From Candidatus Omnitrophota bacterium (GTDB lineage Bacteria; Omnitrophota; Gorgyraeia; Duberdicusellales; 4484-171): DNA of 64,000 nt. The translations under genes were made by a program, and so were the position numbers. The notes below the pieces were generated by a model, which was given only the letters and a program-made list of their open reading frames with translations, had not been told where the DNA came from and did no database searches. The stretch spans positions 161,728 to 225,727 of the forward strand of contig JAIPGM010000001.1 in NCBI GenBank assembly GCA_021735655.1. Reading direction: 5' to 3'. This document shows, piece after piece, positions 1 through 54,078 of this stretch. Positions within the stretch are counted from its first letter, which is position 1, and each line of letters opens with the position of its first letter.

Positions 1-55
1 CCGTCTTGATCCAGTACGGGATAAATTACTCTATGACTATCTTTTAAAGCGTTTA

Positions 56-1240
56 ATGAGAGAGGGTATGATTGGAGCAGCAGTTGATTTTGAACAAATG
101 ATGCAGGCTAATTCCCTTTCGGTTAATCTTGCCCAAGTTGCGACTAGAAGATTGTTGGCCGATATAGCTATTTATCACACCGAAGAATTTGCTTTAGGAT
201 TACATCTCCAAACTAAAGGCGTGCCAACCTTTATTATGCCTCCGGCAATTAACCCTTTTAGTTATAAAAATATTCCCCTAGCTGATAATTTTATTCGGGC
301 AACTATGGTTAAATATGGTTTAGATCCCAATAAATTTACGGTTGTTGAAATATCACGTTTCGATCCTTTTAAGGGGCCGCTGGAGGCCATTCAGGCTTTT
401 GTGCGTTTATTTTTGGATAATCCGGGATTGCAGAATGATTTACAATTTGTTTATGCCGGAAATATGGCTGACGATAACCCTAAGGGAAAACGCGATTTTG
501 AAAAGATCGATGCCTATTCTCGCTATCTTAGAAAGAAATTTCCTAAACTTAGGAAAGCCTTGTTTTTGCTCGGTCTTGGGAATAAACCCGGGACAGTAGC
601 CTTAAATTGGGCCCAGAGACGCAGCTTGCGTGTTGGTGGTCAGTTTGCTCGGCCATTTTCTCGGAAAGAGATAGGTCGACTCAACGGTGTTGAGATAAAT
701 GCTCTTGAGGTTAATGCTTTACAGCAACAACTTGAGATGGAAAAAAGAGACGGTAGGTTAGTTATTTCTTTACCGCGTAAAATAGCAATACAGCCTTCAT
801 CAAAAGAAGGTTTTGGCTTAGTGGCGGCTGAGGCTACCGGAAAAGGTACTCTGGTTATCGCTTCTTTGATCGGTGGCCTTAAAGCGCAATTAAAGGATTT
901 GCTTGCGCAAGCTTCTTGGTTGGGCATTAACTATACGCCGGAGGAAATTAGTCAATCTTTAGAGGTGTATGACTCAATGGATTCTGATCAGCATAGAGGT
1001 GTTGTTTTCGATGTGGCTTATTTGGAAAGAATTAATTTATATCAACGGCTTAATCAACGAGAATTCGTTTTGGGTTTAGCTACCTCTCTGCGGGTGGCTT
1101 ACGAACTGGCTCATAAAAATCCAGATGTCTATCGAGAGCTCGGTTTAGCTGCACGTTGCCAGACTTTAGATAAGTTTATTACTCTAGCTAATGTTGAGAA
1201 CCGCTTAGCCGCCGCTTCCTTGATTGTTGATAATCAGCAG
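56..1240 (+). other. Module A: C-terminal portion of a GT4-type (group 1) glycosyltransferase, truncated at the window edge.
   Basis: Motifs EISRFDPFKGPLEAIQAF and EGFGLVAAEATGKGTLVIASLIGG match the GT4 C-terminal Rossmann domain (E-x7-E / EGFG...EA...G.P.I region). The module ends immediately before the PLDNG at 1241. Confidence 0.55.
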
Positions 1241-4200
1241 CCCTTGGATAATGGTAAGCCAGAAGTTCCGATGCCTTCTTCTTATTGGATCGATCATAGC
1301 CTTCTTCATGAAATTGATAATGTTTGGGCTAACTTGGATTGGATTAATCCCGGGCCAAGTTTAAGCATAGCTCGCCAGATTGAGAAAAATTTTAAGCCAG
1401 CACAAGAGCCAGGTTTTTTAAGAGTTAGCATAGATGCCTTTGGTCCGCTTAACGGATTTAAAAATCAAGTATTAGCTGAACATGAGCAGTATTTTGATTC
1501 CGAGGTTTATAAAGATTATCGAGCTGGCATAATTCATGCTATTGATAATCTTTGGCAACACGGCGGAAAGTACGGTGCCTTATTTTTGATGGCTCAGCTT
1601 AGAGGACGAACCGTACGCTTTACTTATTGTTTGCTAGATCGCGGTGATGGTTTTATTAATGACGATTACAACCATGTTCGTTTAGAAGAAGCCGTTCAGG
1701 CACATAGAACATTTAAACGAGCCGGCAAGAATGGTATGGGCCTTTATTATATGGCGATAAAGCCGGATTATTTTTCAATCACCGCGGTTAATTGCTACCG
1801 GGCTGTTGCCACAACTCAAGCTCACTATTGGGAAACTGGCTACACTAAAGAATGGCCGTTTTGCCCGCAACAAACTCCGGTTAACAAGGGGGTGCGGGTG
1901 ATTTCGGTAAAGGATGTAGCTTTAGGCCTTTTGCCATTTTCGAATATGCAGCCGTTAGATAATGGCCGTCGAACTGATGAAGAACGCCTGGATTTTATCG
2001 GATTTTTAGTTGAGTCATATTTAGAGGCTTTATTTACTTTCCGGAGGTTAAGAGCAAATAACAGCGAAGTAGCCGAGATGTATCTGCCAGCAATTTCCGA
2101 AACTGCCGTTAGAAAGAAACGAGCCAAATGGGTAGTTACAGCTGTTGAGGTTGCCCGTGAGGCATTTCAGGTTATGGCTCGAGCTGATTTTCGACATTCA
2201 TCCGGCTTAACCATTCGTTCAATCTTTGATTCAATTTTGGCTTCTGGCGGTCGCAACCAAGCAGCTAATGATCTAGGAGTCGATCGCGCTAGCCTTACTC
2301 GCTGGATGCATAGCTTACCTAATGATTTATTAGGTGGGTTAGATCCAGAATTAGCAGTCTTCAAACAAAGAATCCTTGATTTATTTGATGAAAACAATAC
2401 TCGACCCCTAGACAACGGTAAAGAAAATATAGATTTATTAGCGGTTACAGCAGTTAAAAGAGAGGACACCTCACCGTGGCTGGCGGGCCCTCTCTCTGCT
2501 GTAGCCCCTATATATATAGGTAAACAGCAGGGGCCGCTAGATAACGGCCGAGCGCCTTTGGATAATGGCCAGCCAGCTAACTTTTGGAAAGTTTTGCATT
2601 CTGGTATATACGTACTTCCGATATATTACACTCGACTTTTCGATACAGCTAAAGACGCAGGAATTGGAAAATATACTTATGTAGTGCCGTTTGTTCGTGA
2701 TCATGTATTGTCTTTAGGCCATCAAGCGATACTTTTCTTACCGTTTTCTTTGCAGTTACCTTGGTCGCAATCTCCTTATGATGCGGCTGATTGGCGTTAT
2801 TTTAATACTGATTATATTGATTGGGGGCTTATCCCTGAGGCTCAACCTTTTCTAGGTAAGTTCGATTATTACGGTCATTCACAGCGTAGCGTTGATTTTC
2901 GATCAATCCGGCCACGTGAATTATTAATCGGAAAGGCCGCCTTTCTTAATCTCAGAGACAATCGAGAAAAACAATACCGCCAGCGCTGGGAAGATTTTCA
3001 AAGGTTTGTTAACAATCAGCGAAGTAGAGGGCCGGAGTGGGATTTAACCCATCTTGGTCATTACCGGGCCTTCAATGATGTCTTGGGTAATGATTTTGGT
3101 TTATGGGTTCATGAAGGGATGTATTGCCCTAGGCAGGATACCCATCCAGATGTTATCAAGTACAACGTTGCTGAGCAAAATAAAAATATGCAATATTCAG
3201 ATTTAATTCAGTTCTATCAATACCAGCAATGGATTGCTTTCGGCCAGGCTCGCGATATGCTTGAAGGTTTGCGCAATATTGGTGTCTTTTATCTTTTAGA
3301 TAATCCTTTCTTTCATGCTAAGGGTGGTATTAATTTTTGGACCCAAAACATCATTTCAAGAGATAGGCATTATGAATTTTTTGATCGTTCACCCGGTGTA
3401 CCCGGAATCGGTAGTGACCCTGAACAATTCTGGACATCTTTGGTTCCTTGGAATTGGCCTAGATTAAGAGAGTTGGACTATGAACCTTTCTTAAACCCTT
3501 ATCATTATTATTTAGGTGATTTGGGCGCTCAGGGAGTTCGGGCTGATGCTATTCATTTTCTTTTTCCTTGGATTCATTGGGAACGCGGTCCTTATGCTGC
3601 TAATTTTCAGAGTTGGGAGTCCCCGGGTCATGATTTACTTTGGAGATTAGACAACGTTTTTAATTCTTATGGAGCTTTCAGGCTTGGCGAGTTACTTGGC
3701 CCGGGTTTTGAAAGTATTCAGAGAATGGGCTTTGATAATTATCACTGGCATTTCTATCGGATGTGGAAATGGGGTGGCGGACCTGATTTAAATCCGGGTT
3801 GGAACGCAAAAGCTTTAGAGTTACATGATGGGCCGCGGGTTTGTGTTGACCATGAACACGGGTTCTATCCTTATGCCGGACACGCTTATTTACGGCATCG
3901 TTTGGAGGGCCCGGGCGGTCTAAAAGAATTAAATAGTCGTTTCCTTTTAGGCAGTTCGGATATAGCTATGGTTTATGCCGGAGATGAAGTAGCCGACAAC
4001 TGGTGGATAAATAACCCTAATCTGCCTGAGTGGATGATGGATCGTAATTGGGCCACTCGAATGCCAATGCAGGGCGATCAGGATTTTGATCTTTCAGTAG
4101 CCTTGTCCATGCTTGAGCATCGCCGTTGGATTGGCCAGCGTCTAATTGAGCGGACGCCTTTGGATAATGGTAAGCAAGAGTTTAATCATCTTAGCTTGGT

Positions 4201-7200
4201 TGAATCTAACGGTGAACAAAAGTTATACTCAGCCAGTAGTTTAGTAATATCTCAAAGGGGAGTCTATTTAAGCCCGACATCAACCGGGCCGAAAGAGGTA
4301 ATTTCTCAGATTCAACTTAGCCCAAGCGGAATTAAAGTTTCCGGGGAGTTAACTAGCCAGGAGCCAAAATCCCGGCCAATAGATTATCGTCACTCTTATG
4401 AAATTAACTTTTATTTTGAAAAATTAGCTAAAGCCTATGGCCGCGGTTTGTTTGTCGGTATCAATGACGTACAGCTTTGGATTCGTCTTAGCCAGGCTTT
4501 GGGTGATTTTTTATGGGGCGTTTTGCGTCTTGAAACAGGGATTTTTGATATTCCCGATAGAAAATTACGACGCCTGGTGATTCAGGAAGCGCTTTATCAT
4601 GAGGTGATGACTAGTGCCTTGGGGCTTTCAGTGGCTAATCGCGGCTTGCGTGAGTTTTTTGCAACCATTTTAAGTGTCAGCCATTTTTGCTATCTTAGCG
4701 AGATAGCTAAAGATCAGGATAAGCTTAATTATCGTTTAGGGATTCTGCAAGCTCTTGATCGGGGTTTAATCCAGATGAGTGATTCACTGGCTGGGCTATA
4801 CCGTCAAATTGCCGAGTCTGGCAGTTTACCTGATCCAGCAACCTTGGTAAAAGCAGTTATAACCCATATTAATGAAGAAGAACGATACCATAGTGACCGG
4901 CGTTCATTTAGGGATTATGTTCGAACTAAGTCCGAGAATTTTAGCGGACGCTTTACAGTCGGAAATCTTACCCAGGCGGTATTAAATGATTCAGCTTTAC
5001 AGTTAGAGTTACAGGCAGAGTGGACAAATTTCTTGGGATTTTTAGCTAATTCACAAACCGTAGCCCGTGCCTGGCAGCCGAAAATTAAATTTATAAGAGG
5101 TCCGCGGGGCATAAAGGTTATTAATCCCCAAGGCGTACCGGATCAAGGCGGCTATCAATTCCAGCTGCAAAGTTTCCGGGCAATTTTTGACTGTTTGGGT
5201 TTGCCTAATCCGCTTAGTGAGCCAGCTGCCCTAAATAGATATTTAGGTTTTCTGCCTGAGCCTCCTGAGTATGACTCCCAAGCCGTAAATTTACCGGAGT
5301 TAAACATCAGTCAAATTTTACCCGGAGTAGCTGTTGTTTATCCGGATAGTTTGGAAGCTAATCAATTAGCGGTAAGGCGAGCTTTGTATGAATTGATGAA
5401 TTTTCGGGTTTGGAAGTTAGCCGTTGAAATACGTGGCGCCTTAGGTACAGAAGATGCTTTGTTTTTTGATCAGCATTGTCAGGTACATTCCTTTGTTGAT
5501 GTAGCCCAAGGGTGGATGTTAGATTTAAATCCCCAAAGCCCGATAGTCTATGATGATGTTTTACCCGGCGGCCAAGCTTACGAAGCGCCGGAGCAGCCGG
5601 ATTTAGCCGAACATGAGCGATTGCATCAAAAGGCTCAGGCAGTTTTTTCAAAAGTTTGGGCAATCACTATGAACAGGTTCTTGCGGGATCAGCGGATGTT
5701 TGGCGGTGAAGCCGTGGGTTTAGTTGGCTTTACTACAACCGTACCAATATTATATCGTTACATACAGCAATGTAAGCATTCTGAGCCGGAATACTCACTA
5801 CAGCGACCTTTGAATAATGGCCTAGGCATACTTCAATATTTACAATCTTTACGTCGTAGCCAGGAAACCGAGGCTGCTAGAAGGGTTAGTCTAGACCAAG
5901 GCTTTGGGCAATTAAAAAGTTTATTAGTTGAAAAATTACAGTCGATTGATTCAACCACTTTAAGCATTGCAAATCTTGATCAGGCTTTGAATGAAGATAG
6001 CCAGGCGATATTTTTAACCTTAGAGCAATTAAGAGAGGCACGCTTTCAGGCTGAGAGCTTTCGTAATGGGCAGGTAAGTATGTGTGATCTTGCTAGCCTA
6101 GCTTTGGCCGCTGCCAGCGAAGAAGTTTTTGGCCAGAGACACTTAGTTAAAATAGTTGTTGGCTATTATCGGGTTGATGAGCAGCTATATAAAAAACATT
6201 ATTGGGTTGTGATTGATGAAACATTGTTGATTGATATAACTTATGGTCAGTTTGATCCGGACCATCTCAATCGTATTTTAGTTGCTACAGTAGATGATTA
6301 CTTGAGATTAAAATTAGAATATGGTACAGAGTTAGAGCCGCTTGATAATGGAAAACAAACTCAAGTTCAGCCTACTTGTTTAGAGGCTAGGTGGTGGAAT
6401 AATTATTATCCCGGGGTTATCGAAGGAACTGGAATAAGGCCGACTGCCCGCTCACTTAGCTTTGAGCAGATCGAAGAAGTGGTTTGTCTATTACTTCTCG
6501 ATCAAGCCGGCCAGGAATTGGTAGCTAAAATAATAAATAGAGAACTGCCCGATGTATATCCTTCGGTTCGAAGAACCGCTCTTAAAGCTATGGTCAGGTT
6601 CGATCATTACGAACTTTTTGGCCCGAAGATAATTACTTGTTTGCAGGATGTAGTCAGAGATGGAGCTGAGATGTATCAGCCTTTTGCTCTTTATGCTTTG
6701 GCTCAGACCCCGGCTTTTAATGGCCCGGTTGCCAATAGATTTGCCGAGGAAGCACTTAAGGGGACCCTTAAACCAAGCCCAAGAAAGCCTACCGCAGCCG
6801 AAAAAACTGCCTTACAGGAAGGGTTAGAGCCAAATACTCAAGCGATTAGATTTAAATCCCGGCTTGCTTCAGTTGAATATTTAAAAGGAGTTTTAGCTCA
6901 ACGTCAAGGTTGGGCTCGGGTTTGCCTCGGAACAGTACCACATTTTAGTCGGGTTAGCAATCGCGCTTTAATCAATAAATTTGCTGCTCAGGTATTAGCA
7001 GCTGATAAAAAGCTTTCTTCTAGTTCAGCTCAGCGACGCCAGAAAGATAAGTCAGAATTTTGGGGTCTTGAGCAAGCTGAGTTTATTCATCCAGCTACTG
7101 GCCATGAAGCTTTGGTTGAGCTGGCCAATGATCCGGAGTTATCATCTAGTGATGAAAGTCCTTTGGTTGATCAAATACTACATCAGATGGAGGAATTAGG

Positions 7201-10200
7201 TTATGTGCCGATATTGCGACCCAGTAAATTTCAGCTTACTGAGCCAGCTCAAGGTCAGGAAGCTGAAATTGATCGCGAGGCGCTTTGGACCAAGGATGCT
7301 GTTTTGATGATTTCTACTAAATTCGGAATAGTTCCGGTTTCTTCAGCATTAGCCAATCTTAAGGGCGGTGAGTTCGTCAGTGGCTATGGTAAGCGCGGCA
7401 GCTTTATGATTATTCCGGCAGCCGCTCTAAATTCAAAACAGCAGCTATCTGATATAATTCCCGAGGTTCCGATTCATGTATTTCCTTCGGGATTTTTGGT
7501 GATCAATGATCAGGGCGTAATTCGTTTAAGAGGAACCTCGCATATTGACACTTCTTTAGGAGCAATTCCGATTATGGCCCGGCCAGAATCAGGCCAGTTG
7601 ATGTTAATCGATCCTTTGTTGCATCAGGTTGCCCGTACACACCCTCGCTATCGCGATCACTATCAATCAGTAGTTCAAGAAGATGGAGTGCGTTTTATTG
7701 ATGTGCCCGAGCCTGAACGTCATTTAAATCCTGCTAATTTTGGTATTCTTCCCGGTGGAGAAATATTTATGCCTTATGCGCCGCGGACTAAACAAGTTTT
7801 AATTGAGGCTGGGGTTAATGAGCAGTATATAATAATGTTACCAAGTGAATTTAATAAGTATTTACCAACCCTTCATGTTTTGGCGGGGAGTATTGGCTGT
7901 TTAGTGGCCCAAGCTTTTCATCCGGTTGAGAAGCGAGAGCCGCTCGACAATGGCCATGAAAAAGAAAAACGGCAAACTAGATCCCGAGCAATAGATATAT
8001 CAACCAAAGGTGCTGAAGATTTATTGTTTACTGAGCTTCAAACAGGGAGTTTAGTTAGTTTAGTGGTTGATGGCCTTGAGTATTGGCTTAGCCTTGACCA
8101 GGGCGATGAAGTTTGGTTTGATTTATATCGGCCTAAAGATGATATCATTGGCTATATTTATTTTCGAAATGACGCAATGCCAGCCAGAAAAATAGCCAAT
8201 TTTGGCGGCCCGAGCATTGTTCCGGCTTACCGGGGCAGGCATTTGTCGCGAGTTCTTTATTTTGTTTATTTTCGTTATCTTTGGCGCAATAATTATATCC
8301 CTGAAGAAGACTGTTTGACTATCGATGATCGATTGGCCCTAAAGCTTTATCATGAAGCTAAAAAGTTTTATTACGATCAAGACCATACCTTTACTCCGTT
8401 TCAGATTATTCCCCGAGCCGAAAAGACTAAAGCTGCAAAACCTTTAGATAATGGCCACGATATGGTTCAAAAACAATTATTTGAGTTAATTAAGCGTAAG
8501 TCAGATTCGATTAAAACTTTCTTAGAGCCGTTTGAAGCTTGCCTTGCTTACAATGGAGTGTTAGCTTTGCTGATTCGAGGAAGGCCTGACTTGAGCGTTA
8601 AATTTTTGCTTAAGAAGATTGGCTCGGCTGAGCATTGGTTTTTACTGGCTGAAACTGTTTTAGGAAATCATCAGTTTGTGGTTGATATTTCGCCGCAAGG
8701 AAAGATGTTTACCGATATTGAGGTGCTGGTTGTAGATTGTGCTGAAGCCGGAAAAATAAATTATCTATATGAAGATTATACTGTAGTTAGCGATCAAGAA
8801 ACCGAAAACTTATTGCGAGCCTTAGCAAGACAAAAAGGGATGAATGAGTTCTTGCATTTAGTTCATCAATTACCAGAAGAAAAATGGATAGGTAGGTTAC
8901 CGGATAGTGACCAGTCGATGCCACTTGATAATGGTAAATTAATCAATGAAGGTTCAGAAAGTTCTTTTTCCGATATAACTAATTCGATGCGGGTGACTTT
9001 TGTTATGCCGATGTACAATGAACAGCAACGCTTACTTCCCAAGACTTCTGATAATCCCTATGGTGAAGATGCTTTAAGGGTTAAAGTAAGTCAATTTAGA
9101 GAACTCGAGCAAGAAAATCCTAATTTCCAGTGGCGGCTAATTGCCGTAGATGACGGAACTCCCGGGTTTGCTTCAGCCAAATGCCTTGAGCAGATTTTGG
9201 CTGAGATTGATGCCCAGAATCGGGAATTTAATATCTATTCTAAAGTTTTCGTAGTGGTGATAACTGAACAAGAAAAGAAACTCCTAGGCAGCCGAAAGGG
9301 TGGAGCGGTTTTGCGTGGCTTTCAAGAGGCCCTAAGCCACGGTTGGGCTGATTATATCGGGATTACTGATACTGATATTTCCAGTAATGTTAACCAAACT
9401 AAAGATTTGATTTTGGCTCTTCGCAAAGGTGCTGGAGTAGCCATTGGTTCACGCCGCCAAAGCGGGGCCGAAGCTCGCGGCATACCGCTTTTAGGGAGAG
9501 TTAGCACAGTTATTTATAATTGGTGCATTCGTTTGATTTTGTGGCCGCTTTTTTCAATTCGTGATACCCAGCGCGGTTTTAAACTTTTTCAAAAAGAAGT
9601 AATTGTCAGAATATTACCCTATGCTCGCGATCACCATCTTTCTTTTGATACTGAACTGTTACTTTTGTCGCGTTTAGCCGGATACCAAATAGCTGAGGTG
9701 CCGATTGTCTGGATTGATTCAGCTGAGGCAACTACTTTGGTTATGTCTAAAGATGCTCCAGCGATGCTCTGGCGAGTGATTAAACAAGCCCGCCATATTT
9801 TTAATAATCCTTTTCGCGGCCAAAAGCCGCTCGATAACGGCCGAAAAATAAATCTATCAGTTAGAATGCTCAGAAAAGCTAGATTAATTACTGTTCATGT
9901 TGATGCTGGAGATTGTCCAGCCGCCTTAGCTAGCGCGATTGATAAATTAGTTTCGGGTTTAGGGCAAATCCAAGTAAGCCGTAGTAATATTGTCTTAAAC
10001 ACCGCCCATCAGAATAGCCCTATGGATATTGTTTCGTCGGTAGGCTCTCTCTCAACTGAACAGATAACAACTTTATTTCCTGAAGCTGTTTTTCTGATTG
10101 CTGGCGGCAATGTGTTTAAATGCTTAAGAAATCTAGTTGAGTCATTGGCTGTCGGCTCAGTGAACAAGCGAACTGTTAGGATTTTTGTTCTTTACGATTA

Positions 10201-13200
10201 TACCTATGGCCAAGGCTCTAATTATAGCCCTGAGCAATTAGCCGGTGAATATTATGATTATTTTAGCGATATGCTTTCAGTCTATAGTGATAGGTTTAAT
10301 CTAGCTGTATTTTATCTTGCTCAGAATCAATTCGAGCAGGAAATTTACGGTAAAAATTTATCCGGGCCCAATTTATCTTTAGCAATTATTGAAAAAGAAG
10401 CTTTAGCTAGTCAAGTACCTTTAGATAATGGGCGTAGTCTTGGGGAGTTAACTGCCGAAGGCTACAACTTAAAGTTTCTAGCCCGCAGTTCTGATTTAAG
10501 AATGACTGCCCATTGCCGAAGAGATGTAAGTTTTAATAGTTATCTTTATGATTATCGCCTGGATCCAGAGCATACTTATCGTCAAGCCCAATTAGTTCCT
10601 TTAGTTGCTCGATCGGTTAAGGAAAATGCTTTTAGAAAGTCTTCTGATTGGCAATACTTGCCGCAGCATTTGAAAGATTTATACGATTCCGGTAAAGTTT
10701 TGATGATTGCTTCCCGAGCCCAAGCTAAAGCTAAGCCTAGCCGGTATTCAGCCTTAGTAATTTCTGGCAGGACTGAGGCTTTTAGCGGCCGGATGGGTAT
10801 TTTACTCTATGACAATCGGCCGATCATTGTTTCAATTTTAGATAAGCCTTTTTTCATTGAAGCTAAAGGAATCGGGGTTGCTCAAGGAGGTTTTAGCTCA
10901 GTGCATCGGCGCTCGGGCCATAGATATGAAGTTACCGGGGCTCAGCGTTGGCAAGCTTCCTTAAAAGAATTTACCAGTTTAGAGCTTGAGCGAAAAATCA
11001 GCCGATTTTTTGGAACAGCTGATACCCCACGCGCCTTAGCGGCGATAGTCTATAAATATCCTCAAATGGATCAGTTAATTAGTGATAGCCTAACTAGCCA
11101 GGCTGAGCGAAGAGAAGCTAAAGAGCAGTTAGGCGATAGTTTAGGGATAATGTTGCGGCTTTCGCCTTCGAGCCGCCGCTTTGCTTATAATTTAGAACAG
11201 CGTCACATTAGAATGCTTGGTGAAGCTTCAGCCCGCCTGCTTTGTTCTTATCTTCCCCGAGTGCATACTTCGCCGCATTTTGAAAATCTTCTGGAGTGGG
11301 CCGAAGGCAGTGAATTCTCTTGGTCAGACTATGGAGATATTGAAGTGTTATTTGCTCAAAGTAGTTATCACTGGTCAAGGTCACTGATTAATGCCCGTCG
11401 GATATTAATGTCTTATTTGGAAACTAGTATTAGCTGGAATGTAAATTTATTAAAAAAACTGGGAATAATCGAAACCGAAGCAGAATTTATCAGCGAATAC
11501 CTAGCTGGCTTTGTTGCTTATGCTGAAACTTTAGACTGGATAACTCCTGAGGCAATCGAACGTTTAGCCCGAGTCCGCTCGCCTAAGGAGTTTGTTGACG
11601 TAATGATTTTTGAAGTATTCGCTTTAAATGCTTACAACGTGTTTAAAAAACAAACTTATGAAACTATAGTTGAAGTTAATCAGAATAATTTAGTAGAAGA
11701 ACTTTTAAGCTCGGCTTTAACTATTGCCCAGCGGCAAGAGAAAGCTCAACTTGTTGCTGAGTTAAGTGGACATATTGAAGCAGCTAAACAAGGAGAGGCT
11801 TTTTTAGGTTGTCGAATAAAAAAATCTCAAGCTAATCAAGGGGTGCTTACGCCGGTAGCTCAGCCGGTTAAAAATAGTTCTTGGGCTAATCCCTTTTTTG
11901 ATCAATTCGCTTATGATTTATGGCATGCGCTACTTTTTGATGATCATAACCTTTATGATTATGTTCAGGCTAAATGGGATTATACTGTTGGTGAAGAAGG
12001 GGCTTTTAACGTGGCCGGATTTTATCTGCTTGATGCTCATTATCTTGGGTTGTTGCGTTCGCGCACCAGCATGCATAATATACCGGAAAAATTATATATG
12101 TGTTCAGCTGGATATGAAATGACTGCTAATATCAACAAATTATTGACTGCGATTAATCGAGTTAGTTTGTGCCCTCAGGAAAATACCTTGGTGCGTTCAA
12201 CCGTACGTAACACCTTACAACATGCGATTTCCCAGCGCCTAAGTAAGTGGCGCCTGGCTCGGGCTTTAATATTAGTCGTTGAATCTAACGGCGAAGTTCT
12301 TGCCGGAGACGACAGCACTTATGTTTATATTATGGATTCTGGTCCGGGCATGCCGATTGATGCGGTAATGCAAGGCGATTGGCGAAGACATAGTACGATG
12401 TTTGGTACGGATTTAAAAGGTTTTCGTGAATATAGGGACGTTGAATGGATTCTTGATTCTTGGTCAAGCAAAGCCGGCGGACCGCAACGTTGGGATGGTC
12501 TAAGAGGGGGGCTGGTTGAGGGAGCTTTAGTACCGGACAACATGCCTTTATTTGGTACTTTATTCGGTATGCGGCTTAAGCATGGCTTAGAATCGAGTAG
12601 CAAACCTTTAGACAACGGTAGAGATTCTCGGTCAAAAGGACAAAATCTTGGTAGTTTAGGAACGGCTAATAAGGCCCCTCCGGTAAAAACTTACAATGTC
12701 GAGAGTCCTTTTAATCGGTTTTCGCTGCGCCTTTTAGATTTAATTCTAACCTTATCTTTCTTGCCTCTGATTATTCTAGCTAGCCTACCCATAGCTATAT
12801 TTGTTAAATATCAGATTTTTAAACACAAGACTGGACAGTCAGTTATTTTTAAAGAGCAGAGATTCGGCTATAAGGGTAAACCGTTTATCATGTATAAATT
12901 TCGTACTTATATCGGCGATAAAGATAATCCTAAGGCAGTTTTACTGAGCTTGCGTTGTTTGGGGCTAGATGAGTTACCGCAGTGGTGGAATATCTTAAAG
13001 GGCGATCTTTCAATTTGGGGAGTGCGCCCTAAGTTACAAGATGATCCCAGCTCTGACAGTGATTTCCAAGCACACCTGGATCAGATCAATGATTTACGCA
13101 AGCCGGGAATAATTAGTTTAGCTACGGCTGATGTGCACGCTGAGATGGAGCATGTTTCTTTTTCAGCCGAGCATCGCGATCGTCAGATCGCCTTTGATCT

Positions 13201-16200
13201 TTATGAAGCAGAGTATTGGTCATTCTTTTTAGCTTTTAAAATTGTTGTTTTGAATATCTTTGCTCAATTTAAAGAAGCAGCCAGGATTGTATTCCGAAAT
13301 AAAATTTTAGTTATTGTTGCCGTGCATATTCCGCAAGCCGAGCAGCCAAAAGCCGGCCCAATTTTAAATATTTTAGAATACTTAAGCCAAAGATTCCCTT
13401 CGAAATATTATAGTGTCTTTGTTGGTTTTCCGGATTCAGGAAATCCCAATTTAAATTTAGATTTAGCTATTCCTCAAGGCTTAACCATTGGCTTAGGTGA
13501 AGGCGATGAATACAACATAGTTAATTCTCAAGGCCTTAAACTTAAATTTAGCTGGCAGTTTGAGGGGCCAGACGATTTAAGCCAAAGAACTTTAAAAATT
13601 GGACGCCACAAGTTATTAATGCCATTGTGCGCTGAAAGTTCTCTTCCGGTATTTTCCGGAGCTAAGAAAAAAATTCCCCATAAGGCTATCTTCATTCCCT
13701 TTATTGCTTTTCGTCCATGTATTGTTACCTGTATGAATGATTTAATATTTCTCAATCTTCCGATAATTGGATTAGATACCGCTAATGGCATATTTTTGTT
13801 TGTTCCCGGCTCAACCCAGATTGATATAGTCGGTACAAACAAGCTTCTGGCCGTAGCAATTAATCATTCCGGCAGGGTGATGGGCAGTTCATTTAAAGAT
13901 TTGGACCAAGTCGTTCCTTTAGATAATGGACGTCAAACCATTTCCCACTTCCGAAGTGGGGAAGGTCAGAGCCGGACCGGCCCGACATCCCGTAATTTCC
14001 CCCTGGATAACGGCGGCCGGAATAATGAAGCTATCGAAAACAATCGGTTTTCATTCGCTAATCGTCTAGGAAAAGTTTTAGTTGCTACTGTTATCGGTGG
14101 AATTTCTTTAGGGTTATTGTATTTATTCGGCGGCCTTGATTGGTATACAAATATAAAAAATAGTATTCCTTTAGGGGCAGTGATTTTCTGGCCGGGGGCT
14201 TTCCTGGATATGGTTACCGGTGTTTTGATCTGGTTAATTTCCGATATCGTCGGTCAATATCTTAATCAGGGTAGAAGCATTCGCTATCGGCAAAGTTTTA
14301 AAGTTGGTGCTTGGGGAGTATTTCAAGGGTTGGCTACTCACATTTTGTATAATTTAGTTGAACTGCTTCCGGTTGTGCCTTTACCTTTAGCGCAAGCAAT
14401 GTTTCGAACTATTTTTACTCTTTTTGGCGGACTGACTATTAACATTTTCTATACCGTGGTTGTAGCCCGGGCTCGTAAAGCATCTAAGGCTGAAGGTTAT
14501 AGCGGCCTAAAGGAGCGCCACAAGGCTTATGATGTTATTTTTAGTAAGTTTATCGTCGCCCCAATCAAAACTTATTTTATAGTTAATCTATTACCTCCGG
14601 CAACGCGGGTTATTAGCGAGCAGGCTTGGGAATACTTAATGAAAGTTTTTGATGCTTATTTGATGAACCGTAAAGATTCACTTTTTTCTAGTTATATTCT
14701 AAATTTATTATCTAGAAAAAAACCTTTAGATAACGGCCGCTCCGGGCAGTCGGATGATCAAATAACTTTGGTTTCTGATAATCTGGTTGACTCATTTAGA
14801 AATGTTAGACAAAGGCTGGTAGTAACTGTTAGGCGCGCACAGATGTCTAGATTGGATTTTAAGCCGGGGATAGTGTCACTTCAGAATATGAGCCCAAAGG
14901 TAGATTATTTCTGCCTTTCTTCAATATCTGAACGCCAAGAAGATATCCAAGCCTATAGGCAAGTTCCTTTAGTACAGGATGGTGCTAGTTTTGGAGAAAG
15001 TTACAGTGAAAAATATCTTATTGCTCAGGAACCGGATACCTTAGTTTTAGTTGAGGGTGATGAAGGGTTGATTGCCAGTTTTGATTATTCGCTTTGTGGT
15101 TGTCTAGTCATTCGGGCTAGAAATCTTTTTGGCATGGCCCACTTAAGTCCATTTATAGATTTTTCGGATGAAGAGATGGAAATTGAAAATGATCGGATTT
15201 ATTATAAATATTTATCAGTTTTAGATTATTTCAAATTACAGGGATATAAAGATGTTCAAATTTTTCTCAGTTTGAATGAGCTGCTTCAGGGATTTAAAAC
15301 TTTAAAAGCTAGGCTTTGGTCGGCTGGTGATAGCGATGCGACTAATCGTCAGAGAGTGGTAGATCTTCTTGGGATTGAGGCTAGGCAACGCGGCATAGCT
15401 GTTGTTGATCGCCGCCTTCGACAAAAGTCTGAGGTTCTAGATGTCCTGGGTTTTCCGAGAAAAATGATTAGCCGTCAATGGCTTAATCGCGGCACAAAAC
15501 CCGAAAGTTTTGAAATAATATTTATTGAGACTAGAGATGAGTTGCCAGTAGCCATAAACTCAGAGACTCAACAACCCGAGATTGAATACTTTCAATTCGC
15601 TTGGCCTGTTGTGATACCTCTCGATAATGGCCGCCGGAAACTACCAAATGATGACTGGATTTGGGTTAATGGAGAGAGTTTGCAATTTGTTGGCCGGGAC
15701 GGTTTATTGATAACAGGAATGGAGGGCCGGGGTAAAAGTTTTTTGGCCAGAAAAATATACGATAGCGATGATAGATGGAAAGTCGTATCCTGCGGAGCTA
15801 CTCATGTATGTATAAGGAATGAATTAGCAGAAAGAGCGCTTTTAGGCAGACGTTTATCCGAAAATAATCTTTTATATTCCCGGCTGTCAGGAACAATCCC
15901 GGTAGAACTATCGTTAGATGTAGTTGTTAGGTTGAACTGGGTTATGGCCTTAGACGATCTATACCGAGAAATTTTAGGGGGATTGTTGGCCGATGCCGGG
16001 CAAAGAGAGTCTTTGGGCCTCAAAATTATAGATATGAGCGATCTAGACGTAACTCGGCAATGGCCGAAAGTGTTGAAGTTCATCAATGCGTCTATTGTGA
16101 AACCAGAGACTTACGATAAAGGAAATAGTTTATTTCAAGTCCCTCTTGATAATGGTAGACGAGCTCAAGTTGAACAGGAACGGGAATTTTTGATCCAGAC

Positions 16201-19200
16201 AATCATAAATGTTTTTAGCCAAGGTGAAGGATTATGCCTGGAGCCGGCGCAGATAGAGGCAGCTATTGCTGTAGATACATCATTTGATGAATACAGGATA
16301 GCTAGAAACTTGCCGATAGTTATTGGCCTAAAGGGTAATATTTATGAAAATTGTCCTTTGGCTAGCAAGCCTCTTCTTCTTGTGTTTACCGGCAGAGGAA
16401 GCATAACTAAACCAGAGCTTATCTTCAATGCCTACACCCAGCAAGGTTTAGTCAGAGAAGCAAGCCGTTTAAGTCGTTCGATGGAAACTAAAAATGCAAT
16501 TTGGGAGATACCTTATCATGGCAAGAAGACGGCTTTCATATTGGAAGATAAAAATAACTGGATTGCTTTGGCGGCAGTTTATGGTCCTGAAGATATTTAC
16601 CAACAAGGACTATTGATCTGTAAGGGTGGAGATAGGATAACCAGGTTAGGTACAGAAATTTCTCAAGCCGCTGGTGAGGCAGATGAGGAAGCTATATTTT
16701 CTGATTATTCCCGGGCCTTAGTGGTTGCTCGTCTTTTAGGATTTTCTATCCTTGATGGTCCAGATATGATGCGCCGGGTTAACCGGCGGATGAGCGCTAT
16801 GATCGCGGCAGCAAAAGAGACTGTGGCCGATATCAATGAGTTTGCTAAGGCATACCCTGGTTATGAGGCTGTTGATACACATCACATACTTAAACCTACT
16901 ACCAGTAATCCGGTGGAAGAGGGAGGTTTCCCGCACACTGAATGGATGGTGACTAGTCGAGGGGTTGTTCAGGGGACGGTTACTGCTTTGCGTTGGCTTA
17001 GACAGGTTCTTGACGTTGGAGAGAATAGGTACCCTGAGGAAGTGGTAAGATTTGTTAAAAATTTGAATATATTTGGAAGTCCGATGAGCTATATTGTCCA
17101 AGGCTTTGGTGATGTTGGCAGCGGCATCACTAAGCTTTTTTTGACTATTTTTAAGATTTTTGGGTTTCAGGCCAGGGGTTTTAATAACCGTTACTTTGCA
17201 ATTTATCGCCGCGAAGGATTACCTAAACCATTTTTAGTTGAGGCGCGGGAGATCGTTGAAGTTTCTCCTGATGCTTTAGATCTAGGGAGATTACTGGCAA
17301 TGAAGAGTTTTGATGACCAATTACAGGGGGCGGTGGTTTGGATAGCTAATCCAATTAACCCGAAAACTAAAGAGCCAGTATTTGGTCCTGCTGATGTGGA
17401 CAGAGTAAATCAAGCTCTTGCTGAAAGAGGTGTTACTGCTATTTGGGGTGATCAGACAGTAGTAAATGAACTAATTTATCAAAAGGCAACCGTGCTTTTT
17501 CTGGCTGCAACCGCTAATGTTATTAGTGAACTTTCTCAGGTTGAAAGATTGCAGGTTAAGATTATTTCTGAGGGAGCTAATAATGCAGTTAAACCTGAGT
17601 TAAGAGAGCCTTTAAGAAAAGCTAATGTATTTTATATTCCTGGTGAGCTTCTTAACGGCGGGGGCATATATGCTTCTAAGGAAGATATTCGGCATAACCA
17701 TACCGATGGATCAGAATTAATAAGGCAACATCGGCAATACTATTATATACATGTAACTGATGAGATCGACACATTGGCTCTTCACCGAATGATTTCTTTC
17801 CTTGAGATTTGGGCTGAGTCAGCAGGAAATTTTTCTTTTGATTTAACCGTCCATGTAGAAAAAGTTGCCGGCCGGATTTTTGAAGCAGCTGATAATTTGG
17901 TAAGAACCAATAATACACGTTTGAGAAAATTTACCCAAATTGATCAAAAGAGAACCTTTGATCATCAAGCCGGCCGGCCGACTTTGCCTTGGCGTCATAG
18001 TCTTTATGAAATTGCCATTGAAATGGCACCAATGGGAATACTTTATCATTTGCGGGATGTCGGTAGACACTTATCTTTACTTAATAGATTTAAGGTTGCA
18101 ATAAAGGAAGATGGTCAGATAGATAATTATCATATATGTCGTCTGCGTTTTGCTTTATTTGAGTTGACCAAGCTAGGCTATTATTTAAAAAGTAACCAGC
18201 GCAGAAGGTTAATCGGCCTTCTTCCTGGAATAATTACCGATGAAAAGTGTGATGGCCTATTAAGGAAAGATGCCATGTTTTGTTTGGCAATGGCAATTAG
18301 GTGGCAGGAAGAAGAATCCTGTAAATCTGAGGTAGATCGGGCAAGAAAATTATATTTAGGCATATTACAAAATCCCCTTGAAAGTGCTCAGCTGCATACC
18401 TGGGCTCAGCATTGTCTCTATAGGATTTTCGGAGAAAATTACTTCCGGCGGATAAGCGCTGATTTTGATCGCTTAAACGGAGTTAACTTACCCAAGCCGC
18501 TTGATAACGGTCGGGATAGTTCGGTCGGGATTACCTCAGAACCGTTAAGAATTTTAGCCGAGCTAATTTCGAATAGTTATCGGACTAAGGCTTTAGTAGA
18601 ATTTTTGCAGCCTTTCTTAGATTGTGAATCTGTTAATTATTTACAAGAAGAGATAGCAAAGCATTGCCAGCTACCGGCCTGGGGTGTTGTTTCTTCTAGC
18701 CATTATCTTGATGAAGGGTATTTCTATTATGGTTTAAAATCCGGTATTGATCGCTGTCTCGAAAGAGGAGTTATGGTTGAGAATGACGGTAACAGATTAT
18801 ACGTTACTAAAGATTCAGAGGATACCGTAAAATATAGCGGCCTTGACGAAACTCAAGAAAACCAGTGGGGAATTTTTATTTTTCCAAGCGAGTATTTCAA
18901 TCAGGCTATCAATTGCGGTTATGCCGAGGCCGGCTTAAGGCTTTCACATAACCGCTTAGGCATAACTACTTATCCATACTTCAAAAGTTCTTTATCGCTT
19001 GCGCCGGCACGCTTTCTGATAATTGATAGATCTAAGGCAGATGAACATAGGCACCTGGAAGGCCAGCCGAAGCTAAAAGATAAACTTCAAGCCTTGACCG
19101 AAGCAGGATTGAAGGTTCTATGGTTGCCGGATTCTTCCGGCCCATTCTTTGACCCTGATTTCCAATATGCTTTCGGGGAGTTGTTGTTTAGTAATGATAT

Positions 19201-22200
19201 TCCGGAAACCAATCGCTTTCTTTTTTATCCGTCCGCAGATACTCAAGATCTTACAAAAATCATCTGGTGGGTTTTACAGTCGTTAAGAATGAGTAGTATA
19301 AAAAATCGGCTATTACATAATATGGAGTTAGCTCGGCAATTTAAAAAAATCGGCCCCTTTGATAATGGGCGAGCTGATTTTACAACAGCAGACGAACAGA
19401 TCGGTAATCTTTTTGCTGAGGCAGTTATTACAGGAGATAATGTTTTAATTGAGACTCATTGGGATGCTGTAGCGGCTAAGAGAGGCGGCAGTTTGAATAT
19501 TTTAGAACATGCTGGCTTAAGGATTACAAGAAGTTTAGCTTTAGGAATTGTACCGCGGGCTGGTGAATGGCCGGATAGGGTTGAAACCGATCAAATCATT
19601 CTGAGTTCATCTCGCTATGGTTGGATCGATTCTGAAAGAGATATTGAGCATTTGTTAAGCGGCTTTGATCAAGCCAGATTGCTTAATTCGTTTAATCTTG
19701 GCCATTATTATCAGGGTTGTCACTATCGAAGTTTCCTAAGCTGGCTAGCGGTTTTAAAGAGTAGTCATTTCCCGGCAGTTATTTTTCATTTCATAGGTGA
19801 GCTAATTAATTCTTGGGGTATTAAGCCAGCTGCTAAGAGTGATTTTCCAGTTTTGGCCAGTCGAAGGGATATCTTTTCTTTCGTTAGCGTGCCTTATGTT
19901 TCAGATATAGAAAAATTAGATTTGCCAGTTGCAGTGTTTTTTGATGGTAAGCTTAGTTCGCTTAGGCGTGGCGATAGCCGGAAACAGCCAACTTTAATAT
20001 TAGCTTATTGGCAAGCTTTGAATGGTTTTATTGGTTTTAAAGAACAGATAGCTAGGGAAACAGCAGAATTTCAGAATACCCCTTTAGATAATGGCCGCAA
20101 AGAGCATGACATCTCTGATAGTACGGTAATCCAATGGCCGCTTAATGTAATTGTTAAAGATATGCGCGGTTTATCCAAAGGCGAGATATTAGCTGTTGTT
20201 AAAACCGGTAAAATATTTTGGGGAAGGGAAATAGTAGGAGCTATTTTTTCTGACCGCAATATTGTTTTTGGTAAAGTGGTCGATGATAAGTTTATAGTAT
20301 TTGATGATTGGTTAATTGAAAGAATTCCTGGAGGATTGTTAGAGGGGTTGCGGAGAAGCATTTTATTTTTGCCTTATTTAGGAAGTATTTTAAGAAACAA
20401 GACATCGTCAATAAATAAACCCCTGGATAATGGCAAGAAATATAATTATCGGCAAGTCCTAGAGATGGTTGACTGTTTTGATAGTGCAAGGTTAGAGGCT
20501 CACTTATTTAGAGCTCTTGGCAGAGTTGAGACTGAAGCCGTATCTATAGCTGGTGATATTATTAGGGCGGCTAGAAAATTTGAACGGATAACTAAAGCAG
20601 TAAAATCTCTTTATAGGAAAACTTACGGCAAGCTACCTAATTTTACTCTTGCTTTCGATCCTTCCGGTCAAGGTATGTATGGGGCGTATCAGGAGGATGA
20701 TACAGCCGGATTTTTTGATCATATTGGCGTAGCTCCAGAAGATGTGCTGCTTGAGGTAGGCAGCGGCGATGGAAGCATTTCGGATTTCATGGCCCATATG
20801 TTTGGGATTAAGGCAACTGGGATTGAGGTTTGGGAGCCATATTATCATTACGCAGTTTTCTTAAGAGATGAAGCAGTAAGAAGAAGATTCATTCCAGAAG
20901 GTAAAGTAGATTTTTTAAATAATAATTTAGTAGATGTTGATTTTTCAAAGTATTCTTTAGTGTACTACGCTGCTCTTGGCACAAGAAGAAAAAGTGAGCT
21001 GGCTGCTAGATTGCTTGGGGTAAGAGAAAAATCCAGGATATTAATTCGGGGTTCACCTGATGAGTTAGTGGAAGGGATTATCGCATCACATCCTGATTTT
21101 AGCTTAAGGAAGCTTGAGATAGAAGTTAATGAAAACCTTACTGGAATTAAGGCAAGGGTTTATACTCGAGAGACAATTACCAGTTACCAGCCGGTTCTCG
21201 ACGTTCCTCTAGATAATGGCCGAAAAAATAACCCTCAGATGGTCAGAGCGCGCTTAGCCGCATTTGAAAAATCAATCGAGGGCATCGTGCCTAGGGCAGA
21301 TCCGCTTTATGACCATTTAATTCGTTTTTATCAATATCCTTTGAATAATTTGGGTGAACCTGACGAAGAGACCTATGTAAGGAATAATACCAAGGAGCAG
21401 GAGCGGGAGCTTCTTAGATTCTGGGCCGGCCATTTCGGCCTTCCTAAAAATTACGGCGGTCATGTGACTATCGGAATCGGTCAGGCTGAATATTATGCCA
21501 TGTACGTGGCTAGCAATCGATTTCCCAAGGCTATATTTTATATTTCTAATCAGGTCGATAGCCTTCTTTATGATACTTTACAGGTGTTGGGCATTGATCA
21601 AGGAAGAATAAAGTTAATTAGGTCTTTAGAGAATGGCGAGATCGACTATGGTGATTTAAAGAGAAAGATTAGGGAGAATTCATCATGGCCGGCGGTGGTC
21701 TGCTTGACTGCTGGCAGATTCCTGGGGGCGGTTGATGATTTAGGAAAAGTGGAAGGAATTTTAGGGAGCCTGGGCCTAAAGCATAAACATATTCATTGCA
21801 GCATGTCACCGTTAAGTATAGGCCAGTCGTTTTTGGAAGATGCGGCAAAGATAGATTTTCAACATGGCTTAGATAGCATGAGTCTACCGTTGTATCATTT
21901 TGTAAGGTGTCCGATGCCAGGAGTCATCGTTCTTACCAGAAGGAAATACCTTCAGAACATTGCTTGTAGTCAAAAAGCAGCTGAGTATGTTAACTCTAAC
22001 GACACCACTAATTCTGGATCACGTAGTGGTCATGCTCCGCTTTATCTTTGGTTTGCTACAAAAGTTATTGGGACTAAAGGATTTAAGGCTCAGGCTGAGC
22101 GGGCCAGGGAAGTTTGTGTTTCTATTAAAGCTCTATTTGACCGTTACGGTTATCCTTGCCGGTTCACCGCGCAAAAAAATACAATAATCTTTGAGCCACC

Positions 22201-53900: not shown

Positions 53901-54078
53901 ATCCCTGAATTCTTTGCAAGAGTTACCAGAAAAAGAAGAATTTAAGCTAAAAAGAAGAAATATTAATAAATGGTTAATCCTGATTTTTGTTTCTTTTTAC
54001 ACATTTTTTTATATTATTTATTTTTGGGTATTTATGATTTTTAGAAATAAAGTTCTCTTGGGGGGAAGAAAAAAGTGA
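50920..54078 (+). CDS. Tandem double B12-binding radical SAM protein with a C-terminal membrane anchor.
   Basis: Two complete B12-rSAM units with EFSRGCVGSCPFCDF and EWSRGCRSKCAFCKNY. The C-terminal hydrophobic helix is WLILIFVSFYTFFYIIYFWVFMIF. Confidence 0.75.
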   Translation: MNLTDKILLVGLAPWGVDTPPLALACLSTSLRNANISTEVFDMNIELYNAVNEQSKYLWSMNYSHWWREPERYSDIRKELDVYIEPLIKKILSFKHKIVGFSLSTNCSDLLLEEIVKRIKTSDPDKVIILGGVSISINEQRNDLIRKLRTQIDYCVIGEGEEVLVELVKKIASNKLEDIGRLPGIIKKGEFEGVKQRAEIKDFNSLPFPTFEEFNLKKYKAPVSLPMEFSRGCVGSCPFCDFKSVSSAFKSKAPYYIISQIKFYKEKYNIIHMSLSDPAVNGDIRVLEQICDLLIEANLSVNINSLAIPRKEMTLELLERMKKAGFYRLEYGLESGSNKILKAMRKIFTVEIAEKVIRDTYQAGIKTYLYLIVGYPQETEDDLNQTKDFLNRNRQYISMIKSINPLYVMAGSEIFCNPDKYQVTLPAKDSDKRWFIGDKNTYSLRKARIFELKKVVASLNIPFTEEAESLEFTGNSLNKQQGIVVGGGNPYDKDESTTENKIMSRGYAEQKTDKYRDSFLLINLPPWGQENPHIGVGYVCSYLRHKGFKPSVLDLNKKFYLSQPNFQMLWHVENKNFWSNQDSFPLILKLFKKEIDKAINDILSSGCSLLGFSVVDPKEKITIEFIRRIKRRDKSKKIILGGPATSTYEQRKIFLDNVEEEIDTFVIGEGEQTLFKVVDRILKKKELKGIEGCCSRDNGKWVCRESGEIVSLDKIPFPTYEEFDLSLYGKSFLVEWSRGCRSKCAFCKNYRLFSSYRSKSAESVMKELRYHKQKYNVDEFTVVDNILNGDLNTLNDICDRIIKENLQIRWTGQIAPRKDMNFEYFQKMKQAGCFKLQIGLESGSNKVLKLMHKSFTAEISEKNIIFAKKAGIETEIFTMIGFPGEAEKDFQETYDFIKRNAKYLDTIKSINTLHLIAGTEIYEQRERFKIKPLPQENWHYLWETYEGNTYKVREERAKRILGLACDLKIKVMETNIIEGKEQKVLLENLGLLEKSLNSLQELPEKEEFKLKRRNINKWLILIFVSFYTFFYIIYFWVFMIFRNKVLLGGRKK

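Follow-up and report, generated by a model that had tools for sequence, protein, structure and literature searches.

PLDNG motifs punctuate a giant open reading frame of an Omnitrophota bacterium, and a doublet of the motif follows a conserved RNA hairpin

The 64,000-nucleotide stretch of Candidatus Omnitrophota DNA analysed here (the window) carries a giant open reading frame (ORF) in which the pentapeptide PLDNG recurs between unrelated, mostly enzyme-sized segments. On balance it is probable that this ORF encodes a processed polyprotein in which PLDNG[R/K] marks the sites of a dedicated protease, and in which a closely spaced doublet of the motif, together with the site preceding it, brackets a hairpin-encoded peptide for removal. 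A preliminary description of the stretch had drawn attention to the doublet and had read the short segment in front of it as a spacer peptide. Sequence comparison gives little support to a functional peptide here; the 38-residue mini-module is probably what results when a conserved RNA hairpin with covarying stems is translated in frame. In itself the doublet is a minor feature, and its value is that it pointed to this conserved mini-module and to its nature. The ORF and its sites are as follows.

2..29311, plus strand: giant polyprotein ORF, 9751 codons when counted from the first ATG (56), continuing past the 5' edge of the window
Plus strand, first bases of PLDNG sites 1 to 14: 1241, 1952, 2405, 2534, 2555, 4157, 6338, 7940, 8441, 8921, 9827, 10418, 12605, 13916
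Plus strand, first bases of PLDNG sites 15 to 27: 14000, 14723, 15617, 16142, 18497, 20081, 20420, 21206, 23480, 26255, 27536, 27623, 29078 (the full set spans 1241..29092)

PLDNG has 27 exact copies, all of them in frame with the ORF (56..29311); the other five frames have none. About 0.008 would be expected from composition, and there are only two one-mismatch variants. The residue following the motif is R at 16 sites, K at 7, H at 2, and Q and G at one each. This sixth position (R/K) is the sole further constraint, the flanks at -12 to -1 and from +2 onwards being unconstrained. At the sites all synonymous codons for these five residues occur, in proportions close to those of the whole ORF, which argues that selection acts on the peptide and not on a DNA or RNA signal. 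Hydrophobic residues are depleted beside the motif (30% before it and 20% after it versus 44% overall, P<0.001), and in composition the hydrophilic flanks look like exposed linkers. To our knowledge PLDNG resembles no known protease site. Two near-motifs were also seen, PFDNG-R (19355-19372, residue 6434) and PLNNG-L (5807-5821, residue 1918). The former may be a 28th site, splitting the segment of 528 amino acids (aa) numbered 20, because the related protein P0151, described below, uses FDNGG and LNNGG as junction variants.

The ORF has no in-frame stop upstream of ATG 56 in the window (1-60), and the match of its module 1 to a full-length TreT-like protein covers residues 357-733 of the latter, with some 350 N-terminal residues missing. 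The gene therefore extends beyond the 5' edge of the window and the polyprotein is longer than 9751 aa. The 27 sites divide it into 28 segments without detectable similarity to one another or to the downstream ORFs. Enzyme-sized segments (113-925 aa) make up 23 of the 28; four internal segments are tiny (7, 28, 29 and 43 aa including the motif) and the C-terminal segment, at 72 aa, falls between the classes. Pfam and NCBIfam matches comprise a TreT-like GT4 (GT1/TreT-like), a GH77 4-alpha-glucanotransferase, a GT2, a Bac_transf polyprenyl-phosphate sugar transferase, an ELFV (Glu/Leu/Phe/Val) dehydrogenase, a histidine decarboxylase (NCBIfam E 1e-151), a GH100/GDE-like hydrolase and a mannosylglucosylglycerate-synthase-like GT, whilst many other modules found no annotation in the database scans. 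The histidine decarboxylase match covers just the last ~320 residues of a 758-aa segment (21221-23494), the N-terminal ~430 residues of which have neither annotation nor an internal PLDNG.

An exhaustive profile-free protein search with the first 1200 residues returned 417 matches, many of them giant proteins (1000-7335 aa) matching one query module only. All of the matches with a named source (P0001, P0004, P0037, P0044, P0064 and P0069) are labelled Candidatus Omnitrophota or Omnitrophica, and the loci L003 and L004, from species-representative genomes, belong to an Omnitrophota metagenome-assembled genome. Judged by these relatives, the window probably comes from that phylum. The closest relatives form the cluster P0005/P0151, of 5131 and 7587 aa. 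P0151 contains 24 copies of [S/N][L/F][D/N]NGG, mostly followed by R, K or Q, where 0.04 would be expected, and this motif has the core L-D-N-G in common with PLDNG. When the two proteins were each split at their own motifs and the pieces aligned, six modules paired one-to-one with six of P0151, aligning end to end with 32-68% identity; their order differs between the proteins, and the alignments end at the motifs:

Segment 3: P0151 T14, 63% identity end to end; T14 has LDNGG on both sides
Segment 4: P0151 T4, 68% identity over 22 aa
Segment 10: P0151 T8, 32% identity
Segment 11: P0151 T2, 62% identity
Segment 19: P0151 T6, 59% identity
Segment 28: P0151 T12, 50% identity

A seventh shared module, segment 2, has PLDNGG on one side and SIDNGG on the other in P0069, a partial Omnitrophota protein. 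Residues 1-529 of module 6 align with residues 2113-2620 of P0004 at 43% identity, and the GH77 match of P0004 starts 3 residues after a different motif, SSPV. Other giants have such motifs of their own: RSExR occurs 11 times in P0067 (7335 aa) against 0.14 expected, and SSP[V/L/I/C] four to five times each in P0004, P0037, P0064 and P0066 against about 0.1. The Ser codons vary at the motif sites of these giants, indicating that the RSExR and SSP motifs also act at the protein level. P0004 even has its own motif doublet, SSSPL-8 aa-SSPL. P0099 was named along with P0067, P0004, P0037, P0064 and P0066 as a giant multi-module protein with its own over-represented junction motif. From these alignments, the motif-delimited segment is the evolutionary unit, equivalent to a gene, and the motif is specific to the lineage.

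Some searches were less informative. Word-indexed protein searches with aa 638-1372 and with the mini-module peptide alignment returned nothing, although relatives exist; scans of genome and metagenome collections with aa 1-1372, and a collection scan with the segment 19/T6 alignment, gave no match. Reading the LDNGG codons as Shine-Dalgarno-like (GGAGG) was not consistent in L002. A stand-alone homologue of module 2 was seen at L008 3233-4770 among ordinary separate genes, the other modules not being shared; it extends, with a change of frame, into the phosphoribosyltransferase gene that follows, so that a frameshift or a fusion is suggested there.

The doublet lies between module 3 and module 6, behind the mini-module:

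1967..2419, plus strand: module 3, 151 aa, the counterpart of T14, ending with the PLDNG at 2405-2419
2420..2533, plus strand: 38-codon mini-module KENIDLLAVTAVKREDTSPWLAGPLSAVAPIYIGKQQG, homologous to P0151 T4 (58 aa, LPWLAGPLSDATPVYNIGKQ), with sites on both sides there too
2534..2548, plus strand: first PLDNG of the doublet, CCG CTA GAT AAC GGC
2549..2554, plus strand: Arg-Ala spacer (2 residues, CGA GCG) separating the doublet copies
2555..2569, plus strand: second PLDNG of the doublet, CCT TTG GAT AAT GGC
2570..4171, plus strand: module 6, 534 aa, GH77 4-alpha-glucanotransferase-like (Pfam GH77 E 2.4e-10), beginning directly 3' of the doublet and ending with the PLDNG at 4157

Positions 2531-2572 thus encode G-PLDNG-RA-PLDNG-Q, with GGG and CAG as the outer codons. 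The offset of 21 nt (7 codons) between the copies, their differing codons, and the 38-codon segment that fills the gap from the site at 2405 are all as first described. The local GC richness noted at the same time also holds, albeit modestly (0.56 at 2450-2549 versus 0.32-0.47 nearby), and is explained by the hairpin. The spacing is by itself unremarkable, since by our estimate a gap of 7 aa or less arises in about 40% of random placements of 27 sites; the significance of the doublet comes from its context. In P0151 the 58-aa T4, with LDNGG on both sides, is followed by the 21-aa T5 ending in another LDNGG, the counterpart of the Arg-Ala spacer being 16 residues there (T5 is 21 aa including the motif). 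A mini-module with two close sites behind it is thus conserved between two polyproteins whose shared modules are only about 32-68% identical.

The doublet shows no trace of recent duplication or slippage. A recent duplication had been raised as something to be settled by comparison with homologues, and the evidence speaks against it: the copies share 11 of 15 nt, against a mean of 11.74 over all 351 site pairs of the ORF, their four differences are all synonymous, and two close sites also follow the homologous mini-module in P0151. An independent Logan assembly of SRR12088349 contains an 8937-aa gene that equals window 2498..29308 exactly, so that there is no net length change, and no 21-nt insertion or deletion, across the doublet stretch; over the comparable part, 21.7 kb, the Logan contig and the window are 100% identical. 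The second copy of the motif may be there for redundancy, or it may be what a lost module has left behind. The Logan contig, SRR12088349_9023 (129,842 bp), stops at window 2497, 37 nt 5' of the doublet. That point is the junction of the inner and outer stems of the hairpin, and the contig end may reflect a multi-copy core or repeat, a strain variant or a drop of coverage at the hairpin. The doublet was also considered as a -35/-10 promoter pair (TAGATA-17-GATAAT, 2538-2566, 9 of 12 matches), a candidate set aside because such sites number 49 versus 43.9 in shuffles.

The mini-module peptide, SPWLAGPLSAVAPIYIGKQ, is homologous to T4 of P0151 (LPWLAGPLSDATPVYNIGKQ), and the heptapeptide TSPWLAG is found in two other Omnitrophota proteins as well, P0099 and P0082, the DNA of which is available as loci L005 (GCA_021163425.1) and L006 (JGI 3300014913). 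Comparison at the nucleotide level reveals a common structure, which in the window has these parts:

2443..2506, plus strand: conserved hairpin in mRNA sense, 64 nt, with an 11-bp outer stem, a 5-nt bulge, a 7-bp AG/CU inner stem and an apical region
2468..2487, plus strand: 20-nt apical core ACCTCACCGTGGCTGGCGGG, identical in the window, L005 and L006, without a synonymous change

All three sequences share the design of an 11-bp outer stem, a bulge of 4-5 nt on the 5' side and an AG-rich/CU-rich inner stem, the matching architecture lying at L005 6788-6878 and L006 1817-1907. The 77 nt at window 2436-2512 have a minimum free energy of -35.1 kcal/mol (z = -4.5); across the three sequences z is -4.5, -3.5 and -4.2, and in none of them is any of 200 shuffles as stable. 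Aligned in register, 54 of 54 pair cells are paired and 8 of the 18 pairs have changed on both sides, seven of these double changes falling among the 11 outer-stem pairs, whilst slid controls give 59-74% paired and 0-2 double changes. G.U pairs fit the coding (plus) strand only, and the structure therefore belongs to the mRNA. Read from the sequence, only one of the three frames through the hairpin is stop-free, which would explain its constant translation as ...SPWLAG....

The hairpin is an undescribed RNA element. Rfam 15 has no match of E<1 covering it in the window or in L005, and nothing near the gathering score. In L006 the sole match that overlaps it, to a microRNA model, scores 24 bits where the gathering score is 100, and is taken as chance. 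A covariance model (R1) built here detected no second copy in the 64-kb window. Its role may possibly lie in transcription attenuation or termination, mRNA processing or stabilisation, or pausing of transcription or of the ribosome in translation. A U-rich tract follows the hairpin in L005 and L006, and a promoter-like site precedes it in L005 (TTGTAA-17-TATAAT, with an upstream TG); on these grounds the hairpin could attenuate or terminate transcription. At L005 6750-6900 the U-rich tract is succeeded by about 200 codons rich in F, K and L, non-protein-like yet open in frame, and the stretch looks like a former intergenic region that is read through.

Two further short modules of the giant ORF, 13931-14014 (28 aa) and 27551-27637 (29 aa), both start with RQxxx[H/Y]F. 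Neither showed significant RNA folding, so that the equation of a short module with an RNA element is not general. Several other candidates connected with the hairpin were rejected. The single exact 19-mer match in IMG/VR (L007) falls in a non-coding spacer that lacks the hairpin architecture, about 0.4 such matches being estimated by chance. A weak R1 match in L009, at the SSSPL...SSPL doublet of P0004, lacks the core and has z = -0.06 versus shuffles. A BLAST search of the hairpin against plasmids and phages gave chance-level matches only, and a small ORF from a GUG in the hairpin apex proved, on reading the sequences, to be conserved over four residues only.

In the mechanism proposed here, unrelated enzymes enough to fill an operon would be fused in one frame with one or more regulator-like modules. 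Each PLDNG would be recognised by a dedicated, lineage-specific endopeptidase and the modules released as separate proteins. We infer such proteolysis from the pattern of conservation: five invariant residues in unconserved surroundings, hydrophilic flanks, boundaries of shuffled modules and sister-lineage motifs together match what is seen where viral polyproteins co-evolve with their proteases, and the lineage-specific motifs RSExR and SSP[VLIC] fit co-evolving proteases and sites likewise. The favoured scissile bond would lie after Asn (LDN↓G, with Asn as P1 and Gly as P1'), because L-D-N-G is the part shared by both LDNG-type lineages and because the released N-terminus would then be Gly, a stabilising residue, rather than Arg or Lys, which at this position destabilise proteins in many bacteria. 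The nature of the cargo points the same way. A sigma factor, a membrane-bound sugar transferase, oligomeric amino-acid dehydrogenases and decarboxylases dependent on pyridoxal phosphate are unlikely to be functional in a chain of about a megadalton, and a processed polyprotein is favoured because such cargo, including the sigma-70 module of P0151, would hardly work tethered. With the whole locus forming a single ORF, the hairpin would have to stay free of in-frame stops, and the site at 2405 and the doublet at 2534/2555 would bracket its meaningless peptide, which would be freed from module 3 and the GH77 module and discarded.

A number of observations weigh against this reading. No protease module was found in the polyprotein part of the window or in the 23 downstream ORFs, and searching the polyprotein for the signature motifs of proteases yielded no convincing candidate. 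Related polyproteins do have protease-like modules, one resembling M23 in P0151 and a Peptidase_S41 module in P0004, which are leads only; the M23 match lies just below the Pfam cut-off and enzymes of both families have other usual roles. The M23 family is known for cutting Gly-Gly bonds. The likeness of the 7-aa unit here to the 21-aa T5 of P0151 is positional only, and the hairpin family consists of three DNA instances, two of them orthologous, and one deduced from protein. Finally, large fused radical-SAM proteins without PLDNG are encoded in the same window, showing that unpunctuated fusion also exists in this organism. The earlier suggestion of a polyprotein with closely spaced processing sites is nonetheless the best-supported reading and has been strengthened as regards its architecture, since motif-bounded modules are conserved and shuffled relative to P0151 and the mini-module with two close sites recurs there; it is weaker as regards cleavage, which we infer and for which the window yielded no protease. 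In P0151, residues 6734-7587 comprise the M23-peptidase-like module followed, as the last module, by a complete sigma-70 factor (regions 2 and 4).

That no protease was found in the window would be expected if the chain were never cut, PLDNG serving instead as a structural linker or turn, or as a docking or modification tag, in a multi-enzyme megaprotein, with the doublet as a slightly longer linker. Asn-Gly is a strong beta-turn former, the flanks of the motif are linker-like, the SSP[V/L] motifs elsewhere resemble Ser/Pro linkers, and other large fusions downstream are unpunctuated. Yet a passive linker has no need of five residues that are invariant at 27 of 27 junctions amid unconserved surroundings, nor of lineage-specific replacement by unrelated motifs. 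The modules, moreover, act as independent, shuffled units, and a sigma factor, membrane-bound transferases and normally oligomeric enzymes are unlikely to work in a tethered state. We regard an uncut chain as unlikely. Cleavage without a protease could proceed autocatalytically, through a succinimide at Asn-Gly. Cyclisation of Asn has precedents in intein C-termini and in type III secretion proteins that carry an NPTH motif and cleave themselves; Asn-Gly is invariant both here and in the LDNGG relatives, which together with the missing protease would suit such a chemistry. Known Asn-driven cleavages, however, require a surrounding fold and not a bare pentapeptide in a hydrophilic linker; the domain scans detected no Hint/intein domain, the residue after Asn is always Gly and never C, S or T, and motifs of other lineages (RSExR, SSPV) have no Asn, which makes a common chemistry unlikely. 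Autocatalysis is for these reasons distinctly improbable. Separation during translation, by 2A-like 'StopGo' skipping or another form of recoding at the motif, is very improbable: the motif, being short, invariant and Gly-terminated, bears a superficial likeness to the NPG↓P of 2A peptides, but the 2A consensus D(V/I)ExNPGP is absent, the upstream nascent-chain context (-12 to -1) is unconserved, and the motif codons vary, so that no RNA signal is attached. We know of no case of 2A peptides working on bacterial ribosomes, which also counts against this route.

Two further explanations concern the doublet and the hairpin rather than the motif at large. Since the Logan contig ends at 2497, the region evidently troubles assembly, and the doublet might be an assembly error, a collapsed repeat or a product of replication slippage; there is next to no likelihood of this, given four synonymous differences in 15 positions between copies whose similarity is below that of the average site pair, a Logan gene of exactly the length of 2498-29308 that leaves no room for a 21-nt indel, and the double site after the homologous mini-module of P0151. 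The hairpin, for its part, might be a selfish in-frame palindromic element without a host role, to which the doublet would be incidental. It is palindromic, translated in frame and present in at least three different module contexts, and a contig break at the edge of the inner stem would fit a multi-copy repeat. Only one copy is present in 64 kb, however, and an apex invariant between distant genomes combined with covarying stems bespeaks a selected structure, not recent copies; the element is furthermore bracketed by punctuation sites in both LDNG-type polyproteins. A selfish origin is accordingly improbable. None of these five alternatives accounts for all of the evidence as well as a processed polyprotein does.

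The processed polyprotein proposed here has parallels among known systems. Viral polyproteins, such as those cut at picornavirus 3C and potyvirus NIa sites, likewise combine many unrelated proteins in one ORF with a short junction motif that varies by lineage, and retroviral Gag has short spacer peptides between close sites. In common with them, the ORF in the window joins unrelated proteins and has a conserved motif at evolutionary module boundaries, those of segments 2 and 6 included. By contrast, it resides in a cellular genome, its modules are metabolic enzymes and regulator-like proteins, its sites number at least 27, and its cleavage and protease are surmised. The precursors of cyclotides, which are multi-domain, are cut by asparaginyl endopeptidases of the legumain family after Asn, typically before Gly. 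The repeated Asn-Gly junction and the P1 Asn and P1' Gly proposed here would recall that arrangement, although cyclotides are plant peptides of about 30 aa whereas the modules here are enzymes of 100-900 aa, with no legumain-like protease identified. Rickettsia palindromic elements are in-frame palindromic insertions in ORFs, and like them the hairpin is translated as a short peptide inside a protein-coding gene; it differs in occurring once in 64 kb and in its invariant apex, covarying stems and flanking punctuation sites. A precursor of ribosomally synthesised and post-translationally modified peptides (RiPPs) with repeated core peptides, such as the cyanobactin-like type with cores of about 6-30 aa, was considered and rejected, as 23 of the 28 segments are 113-925 aa long and several belong to known enzyme families.

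Whether giant-gene products of Omnitrophota are cut into several pieces after translation has been raised as a question, and the lack of known cleavage points prevented the splitting of the giant proteins (West-Roberts et al. 2023, bioRxiv 10.1101/2023.11.21.568195). Those giants resemble the present one in phylum, going by the named relatives, and in having ORFs of thousands of codons, but they are membrane- and surface-associated, of the 'Archaeovorin' or dockerin type, while here discrete enzymes are joined by an explicit junction motif. In the engineered 'fuse-and-cleave' nif polyproteins, operon genes are fused into giant ORFs with tobacco etch virus (TEV) protease sites for fixed stoichiometry (PMC6130400); that design is synthetic, and the system here would be a natural counterpart of it. 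The strategy of a polyprotein with sites is thus already known from viruses and imitated synthetically for nif genes, whilst our literature search returned no description of PLDNG or of punctuated, cleaved or fused polyproteins in Omnitrophota.

A broader reading, plausible but somewhat short of probable, is that some Omnitrophota express whole pathways together with regulators, a sigma factor among them, as operon-scale polyproteins with a cleavage code for each lineage (PLDNG[RK], SLDNGG, RSExR, SSP[V/L]) that presumably co-evolves with its protease, with in-frame RNA elements as excisable spacers and the doublet as the downstream bracket of one such element. If so, this would be a cellular analogue of viral polyprotein expression with a new class of RNA element inside it. 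A junction motif that coincides with shuffled modules supplies explicit candidate cut sites, the first concrete ones for these giant proteins, and a means of splitting giant ORFs for structure prediction and annotation. Should processing be real, bacteria would have in this locus a natural equivalent of the viral strategy and of the synthetic fuse-and-cleave designs, and a new sequence-specific protease of practical interest would be implied. For genome annotation it matters that non-coding RNA elements can hide in such ORFs as apparent mini-proteins.

Among the remaining modules near the doublet, module 2 looks by eye like a GHKL ATPase, and the stretch GGRNQAANDLGVDRASLTRW of module 3 like a Fis-type helix-turn-helix; the database matches support neither assignment. 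The 23 ORFs downstream of the polyprotein include an Opp-type transporter, an amine oxidase, ABC exporters, many radical-SAM enzymes, glycosyltransferases and an alpha/beta hydrolase. Fusions among them comprise three radical-SAM/SPASM units in 1284 aa at 43160-47014 and two B12-binding radical-SAM units in 1052 aa at 50920-54078, both without PLDNG. Together with a methyltransferase and the ABC transporters, the radical-SAM fusions resemble a peptide-modifying, RiPP-like cluster beside the polyprotein.

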